From: a virus
Direction: 5' to 3' (one strand)
UHGV virus genome: UHGV-0338128
DNA: 16,784 nt
Under the pieces are notes generated by a model. The model saw only the letters and a list, made by a program, of their open reading frames with translations. It ran no database searches and was not told the DNA's origin. Made by a program: the position numbers and the translations under genes. Of this stretch, positions 139 through 14,123 are shown piece by piece; within the stretch, counting starts at the first letter, position 1; each line of letters starts with the position of its first letter.

Positions 139-528
139 TCAGGTGAGAATGTTGCGATCCAGTGCTTCCGGCACGGCATAGCCGCCGTCTTCATCGGTGC
201 CCACCTGCAATGCCTTGCGCTCCAGATCGCGCAGACCATCTTCACGGCCTTTACGCAGGAAGCCCACAAACGCTTCTTTATGCTCGGTGGCCAGTTTATT
301 TTGCGCACCACCTGCCGGACGTTTCAGCTCAAGCAGCTCTTTTTCAAGATCGCTTTTGAGGTTTTCCAGCTCGCTGAGTTTCCCGTTCAGGGTTTCCACC
401 TGCCCGGCAAGTTTGCCTTTTTCCTGCTCAATCGCATCCACGCGCTTGTCGTTCTTTGCTTTGAAGTCGTCAAACTTCTGCTGCAGCTCCTGCGCGACCT
501 GTTCGACATCTTTAATATCAACCGCCAT
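139..528 (-). pseudogene. HK97-family major capsid protein, N-terminal fragment (delta/scaffold-like coiled coil plus first residues of the mature domain); ORF stops after 129 aa
   Basis: ATG at 528 with AGGAG SD 7 nt upstream; stop of the upstream protease gene lies just before it. The translation is charged and coiled-coil-like (EQ/KL-rich) and ends ...TDEDGGYAVPEALDRNILT, which looks like the start of a mature capsid domain. Full-length HK97-type capsid proteins are about 350-400 aa; here an in-frame TGA occurs at 139-141 and bases 1-138 do not continue the capsid frame. Confidence 0.5.
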
Positions 529-542
529 CGTATTTCTCCTGA

Positions 543-1193
543 TTAGAAGTTCAGATTTTTCAGTGCATTCAGTGCAGAGCCCACATCCTCAGCGTCGCGC
601 AGGGACAGTGCGCCATAGCCCCCGGCCATGAATGCTTTGGCCTGGGTACGGGAGAGTCCGACATCACGCAGGACTCTTTCGATTTTTTTCTGTTCGGGGA
701 TTTCCCCGCGGGCCAGTGCGTTCTTGACGTCGCTGATCCGCGCCTCGTCGTTAGACGGGAACGTCACCAGGCTGACTTCCCAGAGGTCGATTTCTTTCAG
801 CAGAAAGGCTTCTTTGCTCCGGTCGTATTCCCAGTCTTTCAGGACGTACCCAATAGAAAGGCCGGTTAACGAACCGGCCTTCATGTGTGCATGTGCGCGT
901 TTTGCGAGGGGATCATCATCAATAAGCAACCGTCCCCTGACGTAAAGCCCGACATCGTCTTCCTTCATTTCGGTGTAAACACCGATGGGTTCATCCATGC
1001 GGTGCTGCCAGAGCAGCGCAGGTAACGCTTTTCTGTCACTCCACGCCCGCAGGGAAGCAGCAAATGCCCCGGACATCACCACATCATCGTGGCTGTCCTT
1101 TACACCAAAGACGGAGCCATACCCTTCAAACTCACCGGAGTCACTGACAGATTTCAGACTCAGCGGTACATCAAGACGTTGTTTCGTCTGCAT
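543..1193 (-). CDS. HK97-family prohead maturation protease
   Basis: Translation (...EGYGSVFGVKDSHDDVV...LVTFPSNDEARI...) resembles HK97 gp4-type head proteases and sits between portal and capsid as in HK97. Start chosen at the in-frame ATG at 1193, preceded by AAGGA; the six-frame ORF extends to an ATG at 1229, which would overlap the portal gene by 59 nt. Confidence 0.8.
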   Translation of the reverse strand: MQTKQRLDVPLSLKSVSDSGEFEGYGSVFGVKDSHDDVVMSGAFAASLRAWSDRKALPALLWQHRMDEPIGVYTEMKEDDVGLYVRGRLLIDDDPLAKRAHAHMKAGSLTGLSIGYVLKDWEYDRSKEAFLLKEIDLWEVSLVTFPSNDEARISDVKNALARGEIPEQKKIERVLRDVGLSRTQAKAFMAGGYGALSLRDAEDVGSALNALKNLNF

Positions 1194-2412
1194 TGGCGTT
1201 ATCCTTCTGCTTACCGGCTTTACTGCCATCGGAGGGTTTCGTGGTCATGTTCATCGGTGTGAGATAGACATCCCCACCGGGACGGGGATTCATATCTTCC
1301 AGGTCGCGGCAGTCATTGGGAGAGTAAATTCCCCAGTTAATCCCGGTGGCGTAGGCTTCAAAACGGGACTTCATATCCCCGCGCAGTAACGCCCCGGCGT
1401 TAAATTTGGCGTAATAAACGCCCTGCTTACTTTTTCGAACCAGTCCGGTGTTGATCCGCTGCTCGATGCGGGTCAGATACGGCACCAGTGAATAGTTGAT
1501 AAATCCCAGCCCCAGCTCTTCAATATTGTTGAAGGTGGCGCGATCGGTGTTCTGCACCATGTGCAACGGCACCCGGAACAGACGACAGATTTCTTCAAGC
1601 TGAAACTTGCGGGTTTCCAGGAACTGGCTGTCCTCGGCGTTCAGCGCCATCGACTTCCAGTCCAGCCCCATCTCAAGGATCATCGGGCGGTGAGCATTAC
1701 CAAGCCCGGTGTGACGCTCCTCAAAATCTTTCTTCAGGCGCTCGTAAGCCTGATCTGACAGCGTCTGCTCTGTACGCAACACACCCGACGTCACCGCACC
1801 ATTGCTGAACAGTCTGGCCCCGTGCTCTTCGGTCGCAGCTGCCAGCGATATTGCCTCGCGGGCATAGGCGATGGGATTCAGCCCCACCAGACCGTCCAGC
1901 GTCAGCGTGCGCACATGCCAGATATCTTCCTGGCTCAGCACATCCGTGGAGCCGTCCGAGAATGTGACCTGATAGACCGGCTCCCAGCTACTGTTAAGCT
2001 TCGGTACCACACAGCCAGGATCGACGGGCAGCAGTTCAGCCACTTCGCCAAATGCTTTCACTTTGTAGGCGTAAAAGTTTCCCCGCAGGCACAGACAGGT
2101 GACCACCAGCTCCCAGAACTCCTGCGGCGTCATATAGCCATTGGGATGCGTGGAGATCAGCTTATGCAGACGTTCGCCGGTGGCCCTCTGTTTCAGGCTG
2201 CCGTTCAGGTGATACAGATTGCAGGGCAACATCCCGACCGACTCTGCCAGCACCCTGACGCAGGAAAAAACCGCCGTCAGTCGCATGGCCCGCTGGCTGC
2301 TGATCTGCTTTCCGGTATAGGTGTCGTATGACAGCCCGATAGCCTCCGCCAGCTCTGCTGGCGTGGTCACCGGCGCGTCACTTTTTCGTTGAAATAATCC
2401 CGAAAAGAACAC
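1171..2412 (-). CDS. phage portal protein, HK97 family
   Basis: 413-aa ORF with portal-like N-terminal region (RLTAVFSCVRVLAESVGMLP) and length, between terminase and protease. GTG start at 2412 preceded by GGAGG; its start overlaps the stop of the upstream small ORF. Confidence 0.85.
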   Translation of the reverse strand: MFFSGLFQRKSDAPVTTPAELAEAIGLSYDTYTGKQISSQRAMRLTAVFSCVRVLAESVGMLPCNLYHLNGSLKQRATGERLHKLISTHPNGYMTPQEFWELVVTCLCLRGNFYAYKVKAFGEVAELLPVDPGCVVPKLNSSWEPVYQVTFSDGSTDVLSQEDIWHVRTLTLDGLVGLNPIAYAREAISLAAATEEHGARLFSNGAVTSGVLRTEQTLSDQAYERLKKDFEERHTGLGNAHRPMILEMGLDWKSMALNAEDSQFLETRKFQLEEICRLFRVPLHMVQNTDRATFNNIEELGLGFINYSLVPYLTRIEQRINTGLVRKSKQGVYYAKFNAGALLRGDMKSRFEAYATGINWGIYSPNDCRDLEDMNPRPGGDVYLTPMNMTTKPSDGSKAGKQKDNANADETTS

Positions 2413-2594
2413 TATTTACCTCCGCCGACAGACAGCTGTGTACGATCGAGATATCGCGCCACCAGCCACGACCAGAACAGGCACAGCGCCCCGGCAACAA
2501 CAAAACCCGCCGGGGGATAAATCAGCCAGGCACCATATGCCAGCAAAAGCGCACCCAGCACGCCCACCAGAGGCGCGAGAATCAGCATGATCAT
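2412..2594 (-). CDS. small hydrophobic protein (two predicted transmembrane helices), unknown function
   Basis: 60-aa [52 protein letters not shown]..., with GAGG 6 nt before the ATG. It exactly fills the gap between the terL stop (2606) and the portal start (2412). Confidence 0.5.
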
Positions 2595-2605
2595 AATTAC
2601 CTCAG

Positions 2606-4339
2606 TTAAAGCGAGCGGATCCCGTAGGACTCAATGTGGTCAGACAGCGTGTCTTCTTTCTCGTACAACATGGCTCTGCCAACCGCCATAATCAGCGCAA
2701 CTGCACCATCGATTTTGTTTTCCGCCTGCTCTTTGACGGGTTTCACCACATCATCGTTACCCGGAATGGTTTTGCCGACCACGTTGCCGATACACCAGGT
2801 CATGATGGGATTGCCATCATGATGAAAGCGCCCCGATTCAATTGCCGCTTCCAGCTCTTTCATCGGGTCGGACATGTTGGTGTAGTTCTGAATGATAGTG
2901 ATGGGGTTCAGGTCTTCATCAGCAAGGTCATGTGACAACCCGGTCGCCCCGAAGGGGTCGATGGGTGACTCACTGACCGGGCTGATTTTGTTCGCCGCTT
3001 TGGCCTCCTCGAGGATGTAGCGATAATCCACCTCCGCACCATCGGTAACGGTCAGAACGCCCATTTCCACCCATTTCTGAAAGCGTTCGGCTGTCCGTCG
3101 ATCTTCATTTTTCTCGACGCTGTACACCGTGTCATACGGTACCCAGAAACGCGGGGCCACACTGTAGTAATGCGTTTTACCGTCAATCTCGCGGGTATAA
3201 AGTCGCGCCATGCTGTTCATATCCAGCTTACGCGCCAGGTCAAAGGCCAGAATGCACGGCTGCCCCTCGAACTGCTCAAGGGTCAGTGATTTATCCTCGC
3301 AGCTCTGCCAGCTCACCAGGTTGAAATACGCCGAACGCGCCGACACCCAGATATTGAGGTGTTTTGTTTTAAAGACGTTTGCCAGACGGGCGTTATTTTT
3401 CGCACGCTGCTGCTGACTTAACAAAAATTCGCGATAAACCGACACGCCAATATTTGGATTGGCTTTTTCCAGCACCTGCGGGTCGGTCCAGTCGTCACCT
3501 TCATCAACGGTATAGATGATCCCGAACAGTTCATCGTTAGGCACCGAGCCATTGAGCATCTCGATGACTTCCCGCCGCTTGTCGTAGCACGGCCCCTCAA
3601 TGTTGTACCCGGCGGTGGTGATAGCCCACATCAGTGGCTGACGTCGCGCCCCCATCCCGGTAAGCATCGTGGTGTAAAGCGCATCGGTGGCGTGCTCGTG
3701 ATATTCATCCACCACCGCACAGTGGGGTGATGAACCATCACCGGGGTTACCGATCAGCGGTTCAAACCGCGCGCCATCCTCCGGACGGTTCATGTTTGAG
3801 GCGTTAACCTCAATCCCGAACGCTTCCGTCAGCATGGGTGTGCGTTTACACATCAGTCGAGCCGGGCGAAAGACTTCCCACGCCTGTTTCTCTGTCGTGG
3901 CACCGGAATACACTTCCGCGCCAAACTCGTTATCACAGGCAAAACAATACAGGGCAACACCGGCAGAGATTGCCGATTTGCCGTTCTTACGGGGGATTTC
4001 GGTATACACCTCCCGGAAGCGGCGCAGCCGGGAGCCTTTATTGACCCAGCCAAACGCGCAGCAGATCACAAAGAGCTGCCACGGCTCCAGCGTGATGGGC
4101 ATCCTCTTAAATGCCCACTCACCCTTGGTGTGCGGCAACAGCTGAATAAATTTGGCGGCCCGTTCAGCCAGGTCCTTGTCGAAGCGGTAACGAAACGACT
4201 TACTTTTTTCCGCCATCAGGTCATCAAGATGGCGCTGGCAGGCCTGAATCACAAACTGGCAGGCCACAATCTTTCCGCGCACGACATCCCGGGCATACTG
4301 ATTGGCAGCATTTACGTTGGGGTAAGATTTCCGGCTCAT
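2606..4339 (-). CDS. terminase large subunit
   Basis: 577-aa ORF with an ATPase-like N-terminal region ([14 protein letters not shown]..., Walker-A-like) and nuclease-like C-terminal half. Its ATG overlaps the terS stop in an ATGA junction. Confidence 0.9.
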
Positions 4340-4830
4340 GATTCGATGATTTTCAGAAACGGGTTAGTGGCTTTCTTCTGCCCCGCCAGGCCAATCAGAC
4401 GCTGACGGCTGCTGGGGTCGAGTCCGAGCATTGCCCCCGTGCTGCTCATCTCGGACTCCTGTTCTTTTTTGGCTGTCAGCTCCGGATTTTTGACCCTGCC
4501 GCCCATTGCGCCGGTGATGGTATTGCCCTGTATGGCAATATTTTTCACAGCACGTCGCCAGAACTCATAGGCCACGCACCACCGCTCAAGCACCGCGAGG
4601 TCAGTCACGCACAGCAGGCCCTGACCGCAGAGTTCTTTGGTTGTCAGTTGCCACATGATCGTGGCGAGAGGGAGATCTTCTTCAGCGAACCACTCCGGTG
4701 GCTCAACACCTTTGATGGGCGTAAAAACAGGTTCATCTTTGTTCAGGGCTCGCTTGCCGGGGTTTCCGGCCAGCGCCTTGCGCGCCGTTGGCTTGGGGCG
4801 ACGCCCGGAACGCCCCGCCGTTCCAGCCAT
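4336..4830 (-). CDS. terminase small subunit (P27-like family)
   Basis: N-terminus [28 protein letters not shown] is typical of P27-type small terminases. Start taken at the ATG at 4830 (AGGAG 8 nt upstream); the ORF track start at 4839 is a GTG three codons earlier. Confidence 0.8.
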
Positions 4831-4880
4831 ATGCGGCACTCCTGGTTAAATTTCATTTTTCGCGGGTATAAAAAAACGAT

Positions 4881-4929
4881 GGGGCGGGCAGTCCGGAAGA
4901 CGTCAGGTCACAGGGATTTGACCCGCCCC
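4881..4929. other. candidate cos / terminase recognition region: inverted repeat GGGGCGGG (4881-4888) ... CCCGCCCC (4922-4929)
   Basis: An 8-bp GC-rich inverted repeat with a 33-bp spacer lies in the 116-bp gap between HNH endonuclease and terS. In HK97-like phages the cos site is in this position. Confidence 0.3.
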
Positions 4930-6277: not shown

Positions 6278-6715
6278 TTAGTTGGGACATTGCGTCCTGA
6301 TATACTCCTGCAAGTAATTGACCTGTGAGGTTATCTTGTCGATTCCACTTCGGAGACGGTAATAATGGAGTTCAGCATCTGCTGTAAGTCTAGGGCTTTC
6401 TCCATCGCCCATGCCGCTGGCTCCGGTCGTTGACTTTGTACAGGTGGCGGCGACTTGCAGGCGCTTATGCCCAGCAGAAACATCAGCACGAAGACTTTCG
6501 ATAGTCGCATTAGCATCAGCAAGCTCCTTTGTATATCTGGCATCGAGTTCAGCTACATTACGTTGACGCTTCTGCATATCAGCGATGATGGATGTGGCTT
6601 TATCGCGCTGTACTTTGTAGACGATGGCGTCATCACGGTAATTATCAACAGCCCATGACAAGCAGACGATGATGCAGATAACCAGAGCGGATATAATCAC
6701 CGTTACTCTGCTCAT
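6278..6715 (-). CDS. Rz: i-spanin Rz
   Basis: N-terminus [23 protein letters not shown] (signal-anchor) followed by coiled coil; closely resembles lambda Rz as I recall it. Start overlaps the endolysin stop. Confidence 0.9.
6331..6516 (-). CDS. Rz1: o-spanin Rz1 (lipoprotein embedded in Rz in a different frame)
   Basis: Embedded ORF with lipobox LLGISAC followed by a proline-rich segment ([13 protein letters not shown]). Start taken at the ATG at 6516 (AAGGAG 8 nt upstream); the ORF track extends to 6543. Confidence 0.75.
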
Positions 6716-7188
6716 ACCTGAATCTCTTTGACCGTTCCGCCGGCTTCTTTGAATTTTGCAATCAGGCTGTCAGCCTTATGCTCAAACTGACCATAACCAG
6801 CTCCCGGCAGTGAAGCCCAGATATTGCTGCAACGGTCGATAGCCTGACGAATATCACCGCGATCAATCATCGGTAAAGCACCACGCTCTTTAATCTGCTG
6901 CAGTGCAACAGCATCCTGGCTTTTTGGAGAGAAGTCTTTCAGTCCAAGCTGTTTACGGTATGCATCCCACCAGCGGGAAAGAAGCTGGTAGCGCCCGGCA
7001 GCCGTTGATTTGAGTTTTGGGTTTAGCGTGACAAGTCTGCGAGGGTGATCGGAGTAATCAGTGAATATTTCTCCGCCCACAATGACGTCATAACCATGAT
7101 TACGTGTCGGTTGTAGCCCATTATCCGTTCCTTCTGACCAGGCCACCATATCGAGGAAAGCTTTACGCTGAGGATTAAGATTTTGCAT
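6712..7188 (-). CDS. R: endolysin, lambda R-type lytic transglycosylase
   Basis: 158 aa; [24 protein letters not shown]...[86 protein letters not shown] is near-identical to lambda R as I recall it. Confidence 0.95.
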
Positions 7189-7579
7189 TTTTCACCCCTG
7201 TCAGTCGTTCCCAGAAGTACGTCAGTGCAACCGAACCCATCGCACCACTAATCCCCGCAGTTGCGAGAATCATGTAAATACTGAATCCACTTTCGATACT
7301 GATTAGGCCACCAATAACACCGGTGAATCCTGATACAACTATCTGAGCGAGGGCATTTATCCAGCTCCACGTTGCTTTACTCTGCTTCACATCAATCAGG
7401 TAACGGACAAGCCCCCCCCAACCTGCGATGATCAGCAAAACAAGCCAGAACGCTCCGGCAAGATTCTCTTTTTCGTGCATATGAATAGCCGCAGTTTCGC
7501 CTCCGACAGAAAATCGGAGCGTGAAATGATATGTTGATTTATTATTAATTCGAAAATTACATTCTAATTCATCAGGCAT
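7175..7579 (-). CDS. holin (three predicted TM segments; not lambda S or phage 21 S type)
   Basis: Three hydrophobic segments (GAFWLVLLIIAGWGGLV, WINALAQIVVSGFTGVIGGLI, FSIYMILATAGISGAMGSVAL) directly upstream of and overlapping the endolysin gene. Start uncertain: ATG at 7579 has no SD; an in-frame ATG at 7480 (MHEKEN...) gives about 101 aa. Confidence 0.7.
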   Translation of the reverse strand: MPDELECNFRINNKSTYHFTLRFSVGGETAAIHMHEKENLAGAFWLVLLIIAGWGGLVRYLIDVKQSKATWSWINALAQIVVSGFTGVIGGLISIESGFSIYMILATAGISGAMGSVALTYFWERLTGVKNAKS

Positions 7580-12754: not shown

Positions 12755-12975
12755 GCTGCACCTCCGAGATGCTTCATGTTTTTTCCGGAGCAAAAGGCTA
12801 TAAGCGGCATACTGACGCGGTAATTACGGCCCAGCGGTTCACAAACCACCTTCTGACATTCACGGTCAACCAGGCTAACACGTAGAACATGCCCTGCAGG
12901 CGTGGTGTACCACTGACCCGGACGAGGACAACGGAAAGTCTGATTGGTAAAACGTTTGAAAATATTCCGGATCAT
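12751..12975 (-). CDS. hypothetical small protein (74 aa)
   Basis: ATGA overlaps at both ends (with the Rha stop and the replication-gene start) imply translational coupling within the early operon. Several Cys/His (RCPRPG...RECQKVVCEP). No family recognised. Confidence 0.5.
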   Translation of the reverse strand: MIRNIFKRFTNQTFRCPRPGQWYTTPAGHVLRVSLVDRECQKVVCEPLGRNYRVSMPLIAFCSGKNMKHLGGAA

Positions 12976-14123
12976 TTGCGCCCCCTTACCTCTGAAGGGT
13001 TCAGCGACAAATTTATGAGGCAGGCCAGCGCCGAAGCATCATTAATATAATCATATAAGCTAACAGCCAGCGGAGATTCGGCTTTTGCCAACATAGGATA
13101 AAGCTGCTGCAGCCAGACCTGATGAATTGATGAAATGTAGGAACAGAGAACGCTGGCGTTATGTGCAACGTCGCTCGGTACAGCGGGCTTTGAAAGCTGT
13201 TTCTCCATCTGGTTAAAGGCATTGATATATGCCTCTTTGAACTGGGCAGCACGTTTACCCGTGAAACCCATAGCAAGAAACGCAAAACCGTCGCGTGTGA
13301 TTTGGTAGCAATGAAGTTTGCGACCTGTGCAATCAGTGTAATCACTCACCGAAAAATTGCGGGCAGTGAATGATGCTGAGCATTCAAGCGTGCGGATCTT
13401 TTTCAGTACATCGTCATGACGTTTGGAGAAGAAGTTGGCAACAGCCAGGGATGAAGTAACAACCTGACCATCAACGATGGCAATTTCAGGTTGAGTGAGG
13501 GTTGGGATCGTAGCCATGATGGCAGCCTCTTTGGTGATTTTTAATAACTCACCACCAAGGCTTTCCACGACCTTATTGGTGGTGAGACGTACAGGGGTGG
13601 AAATACCGGTCACCAAAGAACCCGGCCCAACCGAAGTTGGCCCTGCACGCCCCACCATAATTTGGGCGTAATGCTGCTCATGACACAAAAAAACCGCAAG
13701 AGCGCGGTTGTGCGCTTTGGTGAATTCCGGGTTTCCACGCCCGGCCCCCGTTTTATAAGGTGCCTGAACAGTGTAACGTCCCGGAATGGCAGAATCAATG
13801 TGTTGGTGGTCCGTCACACTCAACAAAATCACGCCTGAATTTCCACAAAGGACTAAAGCACTCATGCGGGTAGTCTTTGCGAAGATAGATAACGCGCTGT
13901 GTTTCTGGTTCCCAACGAATAACATGAACATAAAGCCCTCTTCCGTCACGAAACCAGCGGTTAAGTTCCTGCACAACTCGCCCCCCACAGTCAGGTAAAG
14001 TTCTCTGTGGTTACTTACAGCCTGGTGATTTGGTAATCTGCATTCATGCCGTAACAACAGGTGTTCAGAGACGCTGACCACCAGCTGTTGCGACAAACGG
14101 TTATTTGCCGTTAAACTGTTCAT
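12972..14123 (-). CDS. Rha-family phage regulatory protein with about 200-aa N-terminal extension of unknown function
   Basis: C-terminal 181 aa (from MATIPTLTQPEIAIVDGQVVTSSLAVANFFSKRHDDVLKKIRTL...ITRDGFAFLAMGFTGKRAAQFKEAYINAFNQME) match the Rha domain pattern. The frame is open for 202 further codons upstream to an ATG at 14123 that overlaps the CII-like stop (ATGA) and has GGAGA upstream. An internal ATG at 13517 with AAAGAGG SD sits exactly at the Rha domain start. Confidence 0.65.
   Translation of the reverse strand: MNSLTANNRLSQQLVVSVSEHLLLRHECRLPNHQAVSNHRELYLTVGGELCRNLTAGFVTEEGFMFMLFVGNQKHSALSIFAKTTRMSALVLCGNSGVILLSVTDHQHIDSAIPGRYTVQAPYKTGAGRGNPEFTKAHNRALAVFLCHEQHYAQIMVGRAGPTSVGPGSLVTGISTPVRLTTNKVVESLGGELLKITKEAAIMATIPTLTQPEIAIVDGQVVTSSLAVANFFSKRHDDVLKKIRTLECSASFTARNFSVSDYTDCTGRKLHCYQITRDGFAFLAMGFTGKRAAQFKEAYINAFNQMEKQLSKPAVPSDVAHNASVLCSYISSIHQVWLQQLYPMLAKAESPLAVSLYDYINDASALACLINLSLNPSEVRGRK

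Follow-up and report, generated by a model that had tools for sequence, protein, structure and literature searches.

The ymfR gene at the terminase–portal junction of HK97-type phages encodes a conserved membrane hairpin protein

Introduction

What does a short hydrophobic ORF do when it lies exactly between the genes for the large terminase subunit (terL) and the portal? The question is raised by the virus genome UHGV-0338128, where such an ORF is found on the minus strand of the window (here the whole stretch of DNA analysed, 16,784 nucleotides). The preliminary description of this DNA assumed that packaging modules of the HK97 type run terL directly into the portal gene, and proposed that a membrane peptide made together with head genes could be a moron (for superinfection exclusion, as a small toxin or as a modulator of lysis) rather than a component of morphogenesis. 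Here we consider what the ORF is, how it is coupled to its neighbours, how widely and in which places related ORFs occur, and which function best fits these observations.

Results

The gene is ymfR, which is already named and annotated, so that the gene itself is not new. RefSeq labels the region 'ymfR: protein YmfR'. Nucleotide identity of the region is 100% to E. coli ATCC 11775 and 97.3% to K-12 MG1655. Of 5426 complete E. coli genomes, 1363 carry it (in K-12 as part of prophage e14), and it also occurs in the Shigella phages SfI, SfII and SfIV, in Salmonella ST64B and in phiP27. The protein matches PHROG 502 ("membrane protein") with E=1.5e-27 over residues 1–55 of 60. Members of this group such as YmfR of e14 in E. 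coli K-12, L37 of phiP27, Sb3 of ST64B and gp3 of phiKO2 are the same gene and do not differ in anything substantive; in phiP27, SfI, SfII, ST64B and phiKO2 it occupies the same slot between terL and portal. Homologues extend from phiKO2 to Burkholderia vB_E438, Vibrio K326 and the Mycobacterium phage LittleE, and a profile search returned 360 representative clusters at E<=1e-3, with lengths of 45–85 aa for nearly all among the 150 matches listed. PHROG 502 and the related 7105 form a family of helical-hairpin membrane proteins, about 60 aa long and widespread in phages, to which YmfR belongs. Scans of Pfam (to E<=1) and NCBIfam yielded no match above threshold for the protein, only noise from membrane families (TctB, DUF2244, ABC permease). 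Our literature search found no functional study of ymfR, Sb3, phiP27 L37 or DUF1056 and none on a small membrane protein between terminase and portal; ymfR appears in gene lists only.

In the window ymfR is part of a late operon with the order holin-endolysin-Rz-HNH-terS-terL-ymfR-portal-protease. Its immediate surroundings are as follows.

2606–4339, minus strand: terminase large subunit gene (PF03354 and PF20441)
2600–2603, minus strand: GAGG ribosome-binding site of the ymfR ORF, read from the sequence, 5 nt before the ATG at 2594
2412–2594, minus strand: ymfR-type ORF of 60 aa (PHROG 502), ATG start, TAG stop (2414–2412) included
2419–2423, minus strand: GGAGG ribosome-binding site of the portal gene, within the ymfR ORF and 6 nt before the portal GTG (2412–2410)
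1171–2412, minus strand: HK97-type portal gene (PF04860, E=4e-108), its GTG start overlapping the ymfR stop

The spacer from the terL stop TAA (2608–2606) to the ymfR ATG is 11 nt long and contains the GAGG. At the other end, the ymfR stop and the portal start overlap by one base (TAGTG), and the last ymfR codons, GGC GGA GGT, carry the Shine-Dalgarno sequence of the portal gene. The preliminary description was therefore right in stating that the ORF has its own Shine-Dalgarno sequence, fills the gap and is coupled to both neighbours. No Rfam family overlaps the ORF. With such an arrangement the ORF might serve mainly as a translational-coupling leader whose peptide has little function, setting portal expression or bringing the mRNA to the membrane by co-translational insertion. 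Besides the TAGTG overlap and the embedded Shine-Dalgarno sequence, it is consistent with this that a C-terminal GG[EDK] conserved in the family corresponds to the portal Shine-Dalgarno sequence, and that gaps and overlaps are tight in most homologous loci, although some gaps measure about 25–50 nt. However, a leader would not need the motif YGAWxIYPPAGF or the invariant residues G21 and G35, which are kept across phyla at a dN/dS below 1, and in many modules the portal is translated in the absence of any such ORF. We regard this explanation as quite improbable.

The protein itself was described beforehand as a small membrane protein with two helices, and both the hydropathy profile and the helices predicted by AlphaFold2 agree with this. 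Mean Kyte-Doolittle values reach 2.7 at residues 1–19 and about 2.0–2.2 at residues 30–46, the turn YPPAG lies between the two hydrophobic stretches, and the GRAVY of the whole protein is 1.29. AlphaFold2 places helices at residues 2–25 and 27–55 (mean pLDDT 72). The parts of the protein map to the window as follows.

2520–2591, minus strand: helix 1, residues 2–25, rich in Gly, Ala and Leu, with conserved G11, G14 and G21
2505–2519, minus strand: turn Y26-P-P-A-G30, the best-conserved motif of the family (YGAWxIYPPAGF), partly encoded by a C5 run
2457–2507, minus strand: hydrophobic core of helix 2, residues 30–46, with G35 invariant and C38 and W41-S-W43 conserved in close relatives
2415–2456, minus strand: C-terminal tail, residues 47–60, variable and net-positive

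The turn probably faces the periplasm. Conservation is concentrated in the membrane hairpin and the turn, the presumably cytoplasmic tail being the least conserved region, and the motif G..GA..L.SYGAW.IYPPAGFIV.G is kept despite very different nucleotide sequences. The dN/dS of ymfR is 0.24–0.43 at a dS of about 1; together with this conservation it rules out a chance ORF. The corresponding values for terL and portal are 0.03–0.09, so that purifying selection on ymfR is the weaker, and in one S. flexneri prophage a frameshifted ymfR copy stands beside an intact terL and portal. Two homologues (P0152 and P0163) are tandem-duplicated hairpins, each directly upstream of a portal gene. In structure comparisons, a Foldseek search of the PDB gave a single non-significant match, to V-ATPase subunit e (E=5.7), which is also a two-helix hairpin, and a sequence search of the PDB with the protein gave nothing meaningful.

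Its size, its two transmembrane helices and its charged C-terminus make YmfR resemble class II holins, helix 1 is rich in Gly and Ala, and the tandem-duplicated homologues suggest oligomers. Such features would suit a peptide that times lysis or permeabilises the membrane (holin-, antiholin- or viroporin-like), adjusting membrane energisation in the late phase of infection. In the first round of a halo assay, D-alanine was released by 65 of 392 clones of membrane proteins, the ASKA clone of ymfR among them. This is a weak and non-specific sign in the same direction: the authors named leakage or lysis caused by overexpression as part of the reason, and the ymfR clone was lost by the second screening round (PMC10299036). 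However, a full set of lysis genes is already present in the window 3.7 kb upstream of ymfR (holin 7175–7579, endolysin 6712–7188, Rz 6278–6715), with the HNH, terS and terL genes between this cassette (6278–7579) and ymfR. No holin family in Pfam, PHROG or NCBIfam matched the ORF, and in the loci examined ymfR never adjoins an endolysin gene. A role in lysis is therefore unlikely.

To place the ORF in a wider context we compared terL/portal junctions across 24 diverse HK97-portal phages. A hydrophobic ORF of 50–67 aa is present at this junction in 10 of them (roughly 40%). Such ORFs are concentrated there: of the hydrophobic coding-strand ORFs of 40–95 aa in the 24 diverse loci (148.6 kb), 9 lie at the terL/portal junction vs 1 elsewhere. 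In 5 of the 12 phages where a junction ORF was found it carries no annotation. The assumption that terL runs directly into portal is correct for HK97 itself, and no hidden ORF was found at the HK97 junction, but it holds in only 9 of the 24 sampled phages and is thus no more than half true.

Not all of these junction ORFs can be shown to be relatives of YmfR. Those of Bacillus BtiUFT6.51-F and Clostridium phiCT453B (both PHROG 1142), Pseudomonas phi1 (PHROG 4810; annotated Detrevirus), Lactobacillus JNU_P1 and Enterococcus Ef5.3 are likewise hydrophobic ORFs of 50–67 aa with two hydrophobic stretches (by inspection), and are placed exactly between terL and an HK97-type portal gene. An attempt to demonstrate homology to YmfR failed for the Bacillus, Clostridium and Pseudomonas phi1 ORFs: their HMM scores are within the range of shuffled sequences and the hhalign probability is 3.5%, and we therefore call them positional analogues only. 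The sole bridge is gp10 of the Mycobacterium phage LittleE, which matches both PHROG 502 (1.5e-17) and PHROG 1142 (5e-5). A homologue search with the Bacillus ORF returned 14 close relatives only. Pfam matches of the look-alike ORFs were all below the cut-off (DUF1056 at E=0.099, NfeD_membrane at 0.0022, 8xMP at 0.066), and we treat them as effects of composition.

In some GenBank records the ymfR ORF is called 'head-tail joining protein W', after lambda gpW. The likeness is that the small gpW gene, too, is flanked by the genes for the large terminase subunit (A) and the portal (B). However, gpW is a soluble protein, while YmfR is a hydrophobic hairpin in which no gpW family was found by Pfam up to E=1, and the label is most likely a mis-annotation based on position.

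Among relatives of the window the picture is uniform. The order terL-ORF-portal is kept in 92 of 92 close and moderately related loci. A scan of viral contigs gave 80 near-identical loci, which are informative on synteny and not on diversity, and a scan of genome contigs gave 14 loci, all from Enterobacterales or near. Among distant homologues (E from 1e-9 to 3e-5) the flanks could be read in nine: PF04860 is encoded immediately downstream in 9 of 9, and TerL upstream in 6 of 6 for which the upstream gene could be read and recognised. The contig of one more homologue, P0240, was too short to read, and it is not counted here. Within the family defined by sequence, the slot next to the portal is thus invariant from Proteobacteria to Actinobacteria. 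The comparison with related head modules that the preliminary description had called for, to see whether the ORF is variably present, accordingly has two answers: it is constant among related loci, and it is absent from HK97 and from 14 of the 24 more distant modules. Universal conservation, which together with a demonstrated assembly role would have refuted the moron reading, is thus not what we find.

Some phages have exchanged one side of the junction. SfV shares terL with the window (97% identical over window positions 2684–4897), whereas its portal is only 27% identical, and beside this divergent portal SfV carries a different, distantly related hairpin ORF (PHROG 7105). This 53-aa ORF, unannotated in SfV and hypothetical in E. 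coli phage vB_EcoS-733R5, also has two helices and the same slot, and it is a remote homologue of YmfR (PHROG 502 at E=5.7e-6; family HMM 24.6 bits vs a shuffle maximum of 4.1), but is only 31% identical and lacks the YPPAG turn and the WSW. Conversely, phi467, 606R7 and a Citrobacter locus share ORF and portal with the window and have a different terL. In such exchanges of terL and portal between phages, the ORF travels with the portal. On the portal side of HK97-type head modules, ymfR is a fixed component, though a dispensable one. The linkage could, however, simply reflect the stop/start overlap and the embedded Shine-Dalgarno sequence.

We then asked whether ymfR has the properties of a moron, for which we used the criteria of own promoter and terminator, deviant GC, sporadic presence and expression from the prophage (PMC3594210). 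A scan for σ70 consensus promoters and intrinsic terminators gave no minus-strand site flanking 2412–2594, with site counts equal to those of shuffled sequence. The GC content of ymfR (0.590; GC3 0.639) shows no discontinuity with terS, terL and portal (GC 0.54–0.59; GC3 0.66–0.69). No pair of near-identical modules differing by ymfR alone was seen among the loci compared. In the one expression result that we found, ymfR RNA of e14 rises with the other e14 genes under SOS-inducing stress (log2FC 4.5; PMC10012262), which fits expression in the lytic cycle better than expression from the prophage. Together with the fixed gene order, these results give the moron reading of the preliminary description poor support. 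An instructive comparison is gp15 of HK97, the archetype of the moron and a superinfection-exclusion protein. It, too, is a small inner-membrane protein of an HK97-group phage encoded within a structural operon, in this case that of the tail. The gp15 gene is flanked by a promoter and a terminator of its own, deviates in GC content and is active in the prophage, and its product is a relative of bacterial YebO (PMC3594210). By contrast, ymfR has no such promoter or terminator and no deviant GC, and it sits in a conserved slot.

A rival reading is a role against competitors or host defence. YmfR could be an accessory membrane protein that excludes superinfecting phages or blocks a membrane-bound abortive-infection effector. 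It would then resemble HK97 gp15, T4 Imm or P22 SieA in function, with the difference that its expression comes from the late operon; this comes closest to the original suggestion. Small inner-membrane proteins of known role in phage structural operons are typically exclusion proteins, as is gp15 (PMC3594210). Conservation of the hairpin and the presumed periplasmic turn rather than of the tail is as expected for a target in the membrane, and the patchy distribution among HK97-type modules, a dN/dS above that of the structural genes and the retention of an intact copy in the decayed prophage e14 point the same way. So does the PHROG category of the family ('moron, auxiliary metabolic gene and host takeover'), though this is a label given to 'membrane protein' and not a tested function. 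Against this, besides the promoter, terminator and GC results, stand the invariant position next to the portal, unlike that of morons scattered horizontally, the result of PADLOC (0 families at E<=1 for the ymfR ORF, the SfV ORF and LittleE gp10) and the e14 transcript, which behaves like that of an induced prophage gene (PMC10012262). We consider such a role possible but not probable.

Discussion

Taken together, these results make ymfR look like a late gene that belongs to the head module, and not like a moron added to it. The reading we favour, with a probability of roughly one in three, is that YmfR is a late membrane helper or anchor for the portal, for prohead initiation or for packaging, acting in the manner of T4 gp40. 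The protein would be made only in lytic growth, roughly in proportion to the portal. It would insert into the inner membrane with both ends cytoplasmic, because of the positive charge of the C-tail here and of the N-terminal extensions of distant homologues, and may self-associate through its conserved glycine faces, as the tandem-duplicated hairpins of the two homologues P0152 and P0163 hint. T4 gene 40 is presumably not adjacent to the portal gene, and the assembly role we propose for YmfR would be a likeness of functional class, not of sequence family. The model is T4, where head assembly starts at the inner membrane with the involvement of a phage factor: the membrane-bound portal initiator gp20 requires the chaperone gp40 (PMC9958956).

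This assembly role is favoured by coding conservation, operon context, synteny next to the portal, the joint inheritance of ORF and portal, the breadth of the family and the co-induction of ymfR with other e14 genes (PMC10012262). Several observations weigh against it. HK97 and 14 of the 24 HK97-portal phages do without the gene, and thus assembly of the HK97 type does not need it. The tail, as the likeliest contact with the portal, is the least conserved part, and a conserved hairpin and turn fit an activity within the membrane or a target in the host membrane at least as well. Weaker purifying selection than on terL and portal, the frameshifted S. flexneri copy and a linkage that the stop/start overlap and embedded Shine-Dalgarno sequence alone could produce also count against an assembly helper.

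The same place inside the head module, beside the portal, would also suit a minor component of the virion, such as an ejection peptide that forms a channel, carried at the portal or in the head. However, the hydrophobicity of the protein makes solubility inside a capsid unlikely, many related heads dispense with it, and our literature search found no virion proteomics report for YmfR; we regard such a component as very improbable. Going beyond the helper role in the window, it is conceivable, if rather doubtful, that HK97-type portals have a membrane partner missed so far, namely the whole cross-phylum family of hairpins of about 60 aa, which would be coupled to portal translation, oligomerise in the inner membrane and nucleate or anchor the portal ring or the packaging complex there.

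What we consider worth keeping is the pattern: a gene for a hydrophobic hairpin at the terL/portal junction, often unannotated and linked to the portal on recombination. The head module has been studied very well, and ymfR, with a copy in E. coli K-12, is one of its more widespread uncharacterised genes. If YmfR works in exclusion or against host defence, it would be unusual in being hard-wired into a late operon. If instead it acts on the portal or on prohead initiation, it would bear on how the single portal vertex is specified in HK97-type capsids. And should the family as a whole be the membrane partner of these portals, head assembly initiated at the membrane, so far documented for T4 gp20/gp40, would be widespread among temperate HK97-type phages, and the look-alike ORFs in phages of Firmicutes and Pseudomonas would be forms of this device that arose by divergence or convergence.

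A ymfR-type gene coupled to terL and portal

In this part of the window the minus strand is the coding strand for all genes, with a P27-type small terminase ahead of terL and an S78 prohead protease after the portal gene. The features at the terL/portal junction are:

Upstream of ORF, minus: terL, 577-aa large terminase (PF03354 and PF20441)
2608-2606, minus: terL stop TAA, read from the sequence
2603-2600, minus: GAGG, SD of the ORF, ahead of the ATG at 2594, read from the sequence
2412..2594, minus: ymfR-type ORF, 60 aa, ATG start
2423-2419, minus: portal GGAGG, made by the last Gly codons of the ORF
Downstream of ORF, minus: portal, 413-aa HK97-type (PF04860, E=4e-108)

The ORF stop TAG (2414-2412) and the portal start GTG (2412-2410) have one G in common. 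Since these signals, including the GAGG and the embedded GGAGG, are read directly from the sequence, the preliminary description of an ORF that has its own SD, fills the gap and is coupled to both neighbours is accurate. Translation of ymfR ends on the portal start, and YmfR would be made in proportion to the portal protein. It seems improbable to us that the ORF serves only as a leader that couples translation to portal.

The product matches PHROG 502 ("membrane protein", E=1.5e-27), with no family match in Pfam or NCBIfam searches. It carries all defining features of the YmfR/PHROG 502 family and is a member of it. It is an already known gene, annotated without an assigned function. Of 5426 complete E. 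coli genomes, 1363 contain a 401-nt region around the ORF (100% identity in ATCC 11775, 97.3% in K-12 MG1655), where it is annotated "ymfR: protein YmfR"; in the K-12 prophage e14, ymfR lies between aaaE, a terminase remnant, and beeE, a portal remnant (PMC12956098, PMC11541549). Identity of the module is 97-98% with the Shigella phages SfII, SfIV and SfI, 88% with ST64B of Salmonella and 80% with phiP27, where the ORF carries the name L37 and the annotation "putative integral membrane protein". When 1.84 billion representative proteins were searched with a profile, 360 clusters matched (E<=1e-3); among the 150 of these that were listed, nearly all are 45-85 aa long. Against diverged Enterobacterales copies, dN/dS of the ORF is 0.24-0.43 at dS ~1, and that of terL and portal 0.03-0.09; the ORF is under purifying selection, weaker than on terL and portal.

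Several individual copies deserve mention. Between phiP27 (locus L003, 3314-3493) and window 2412-2594, dS is 0.08 for the ORF, 2.0 for the flanking terL and 0.78 for portal; judged by this divergence, a short patch centred on the ORF has evidently been exchanged recently. In S. flexneri SFBU0723 (CP182557.1, locus L094 at about 4070-4080), one of two prophage copies lacks 1 nt of the C5 run coding for Pro-Pro of the YPPAG turn, which frameshifts ymfR; terL and portal there are still 99-100% identical to the window. Proteins encoded by a MAG labelled 'Bacillota bacterium' (L087) and by Edwardsiella hoshinae (L085) are 97-100% identical to the E. coli/Shigella prophage module, and OR844959.1 ('Enterococcus phage Efm 3-10', 1764 bp) has 85% nucleotide identity to it. 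These host labels probably reflect binning or sample contamination or mis-assignment; the Edwardsiella copy could instead be a real transfer.

A predicted membrane hairpin

Hydropathy marks residues 1-25 and residues 30-46 as hydrophobic, with YPPAG between the two stretches and a tail of net positive charge. AlphaFold2, run on a 60-sequence alignment, places helices at 2-25 and 27-55 with moderate confidence (pLDDT 72), and the small two-helix membrane protein first proposed from the sequence is thereby upheld. The core common to homologues is G..GA..L.SYGAW.IYPPAGFIV.G, with invariant G21 and G35; the tail is variable, as is any N-terminal extension. By the positive-inside rule YmfR would sit in the inner membrane with both termini inside, and its glycine-rich helix faces may mediate self-association. 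Two metagenomic homologues, P0152 (122 aa, locus L130) and P0163 (111 aa, L129), are tandem-duplicated hairpins fused in one protein, each with portal directly downstream, which hints that an oligomer may be the working unit.

Linkage to portal

The preliminary description had called for a comparison with related head modules, in case the ORF were variably present; the order terL-ORF-portal was constant in 92/92 loci, all retrieved through the ORF. We also inspected ten distant homologues (profile E 1e-9 to 3e-5), nine with readable flanks, the tenth contig being too short. A PF04860 portal lies immediately downstream in 9/9, and TerL upstream in all six for which the upstream gene could be read and recognised. 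Phage SfV has terS and terL 97% identical to window 2684-4897; beyond these its portal is another one, of 27% identity, and the 53-aa hairpin ORF in front of it, which is unannotated, differs as well. Conversely, phi467 and 606R7 have capsid, protease, portal and ORF in common with window 142-2623, terL being only 37% identical, and a Citrobacter locus (L096) shows the same pattern. No case of the ORF kept with terL while portal changes was found among the recombination junctions examined. Junctions and synteny point the same way, to a position apparently tied to portal.

The SfV ORF (U82619.2; locus L001, 3262-3423, minus) matches PHROG 7105 (E=3e-22), a relative of PHROG 502. Its ATG shares bases with the terL stop (ATGA). 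At the other end it runs 59 nt into portal as annotated, suggesting that the annotated portal start is too far upstream.

Moron, lysis and defence readings

A moron is defined by its own promoter and terminator, deviant GC and expression from the repressed prophage (PMC3594210). We found no promoter- or terminator-like sites near the ORF on the coding strand, site counts equalling those of shuffled sequence. Its GC (0.59; GC3 0.64) is that of the flanking packaging genes, upstream lysis genes having 0.45-0.49. By these classical criteria the ORF does not behave like a moron, and the earlier suggestion is poorly supported. The sole expression datum found is a ~20-fold rise of e14 ymfR, shared by the rest of the e14 genes, in response to an SOS-inducing drug (PMC10012262).

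The window has a full lysis cassette of holin, endolysin and Rz ahead of terS, together with an HNH gene; the ORF therefore belongs to an ordinary late operon, and as a candidate for the phage's holin it is rejected by location and family. The separate cassette also speaks against a lysis-timing or permeabilising peptide, which we regard as unlikely. An ASKA ymfR clone was, like 64 other membrane-protein clones, positive in the first round of a D-alanine release screen and later dropped out (PMC10299036), a result too unspecific to weigh. A known defence protein was rejected, PADLOC giving no match. Late expression of an exclusion or anti-defence factor acting at the membrane level is a possibility to which we would give about one chance in four.

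Four records (ON470584.1, ON470603.1, ON470580.1 and PQ793804.1; H1, H2, H21 and H12) give the name 'head-tail joining protein W' to the ymfR-type ORF. We reject lambda gpW, since the product is a hydrophobic hairpin with no gpW family match; the label looks like a positional mis-annotation.

Elsewhere in the window, two Rfam matches exceed the gathering score, C4 antisense RNA (83.6 bits, 13575-13662, minus) and the Hfq-binding sRNA isrK (64 bits, 13687-13763, minus). Both lie inside the mechanical ORF 12972-14123, which is therefore probably not all coding. Presumably this region resembles a P1/P7-type immunity (antirepressor control) region.

Proposed role

ymfR is conserved but dispensable, a late gene on the portal side of the head module, and encodes a two-helix hydrophobic hairpin. 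We tentatively propose (probability roughly 0.35) that YmfR may act at the membrane, helping or anchoring the initiation of portal or prohead, or else packaging. A possible analogue is T4 gp40, which the membrane-bound portal initiator gp20 requires (PMC9958956). Against such a role, many HK97-type phages are without ymfR, the cytoplasmic tail is its least conserved part, and one Shigella prophage has the frameshifted copy beside intact neighbours. That YmfR is instead a virion component we consider very improbable.

The terL/portal slot across HK97-type phages

We picked 24 phages for host diversity, their outcome not yet known, out of a spread list of 2050 phage records that have a homologous portal, so the sample is not random; 10/24 have, exactly at the terL/portal junction, a hydrophobic ORF of 50-67 aa.

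Table. Phages with a hydrophobic terL/portal ORF, and its annotation
Klebsiella phiKO2: membrane protein
Vibrio K326: hypothetical
Mycobacterium LittleE: membrane protein
E. coli vB_EcoS-733R5: hypothetical
Lactobacillus JNU_P1: hypothetical
Enterococcus Ef5.3: hypothetical
Burkholderia vB_E438 (locus L102, 2276-2461): not annotated
Bacillus BtiUFT6.51-F (L103, 2333-2494): not annotated
Pseudomonas phi1 (L104, 2327-2491): not annotated
Clostridium phiCT453B (L112, 2284-2475): not annotated

In the last four, the apparently empty terL-portal gap of 186-210 nt holds an unannotated 53-63 aa hydrophobic ORF in every case. As a control, hydrophobic 40-95 aa ORFs on the coding strand of the 24 sampled loci (148.6 kb) numbered 9 at the junction vs 1 elsewhere. 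The premise that terL normally runs directly into portal is right for HK97, which has no hydrophobic ORF there, and for nine of the sampled phages, but not for the ten listed or for five with other small ORFs, mostly soluble. Streptococcus phage Javan38 (L101, 1536-2433) has three soluble small ORFs at the junction, and a Coprococcus phage (L119, 71-2511) two larger genes and a Cys-rich 55-aa ORF; with such other cargo, the junction is also a general insertion site.

At the sequence level, the ORFs of phiKO2, Burkholderia, LittleE, Vibrio K326 and the SfV type are solid homologues of YmfR, because they match PHROG 502/7105 and score 20-82 bits with the family HMM vs shuffle maxima of 2-9. For the ORFs of Bacillus and Clostridium (PHROG 1142) and that of Pseudomonas (PHROG 4810) homology could not be demonstrated, and we call these positional analogues. 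We found no description of a pre-portal membrane-hairpin slot in the literature searched. The broader pattern, which we consider moderately interesting, is a membrane-hairpin slot before portal that is found across phyla and is often unannotated.
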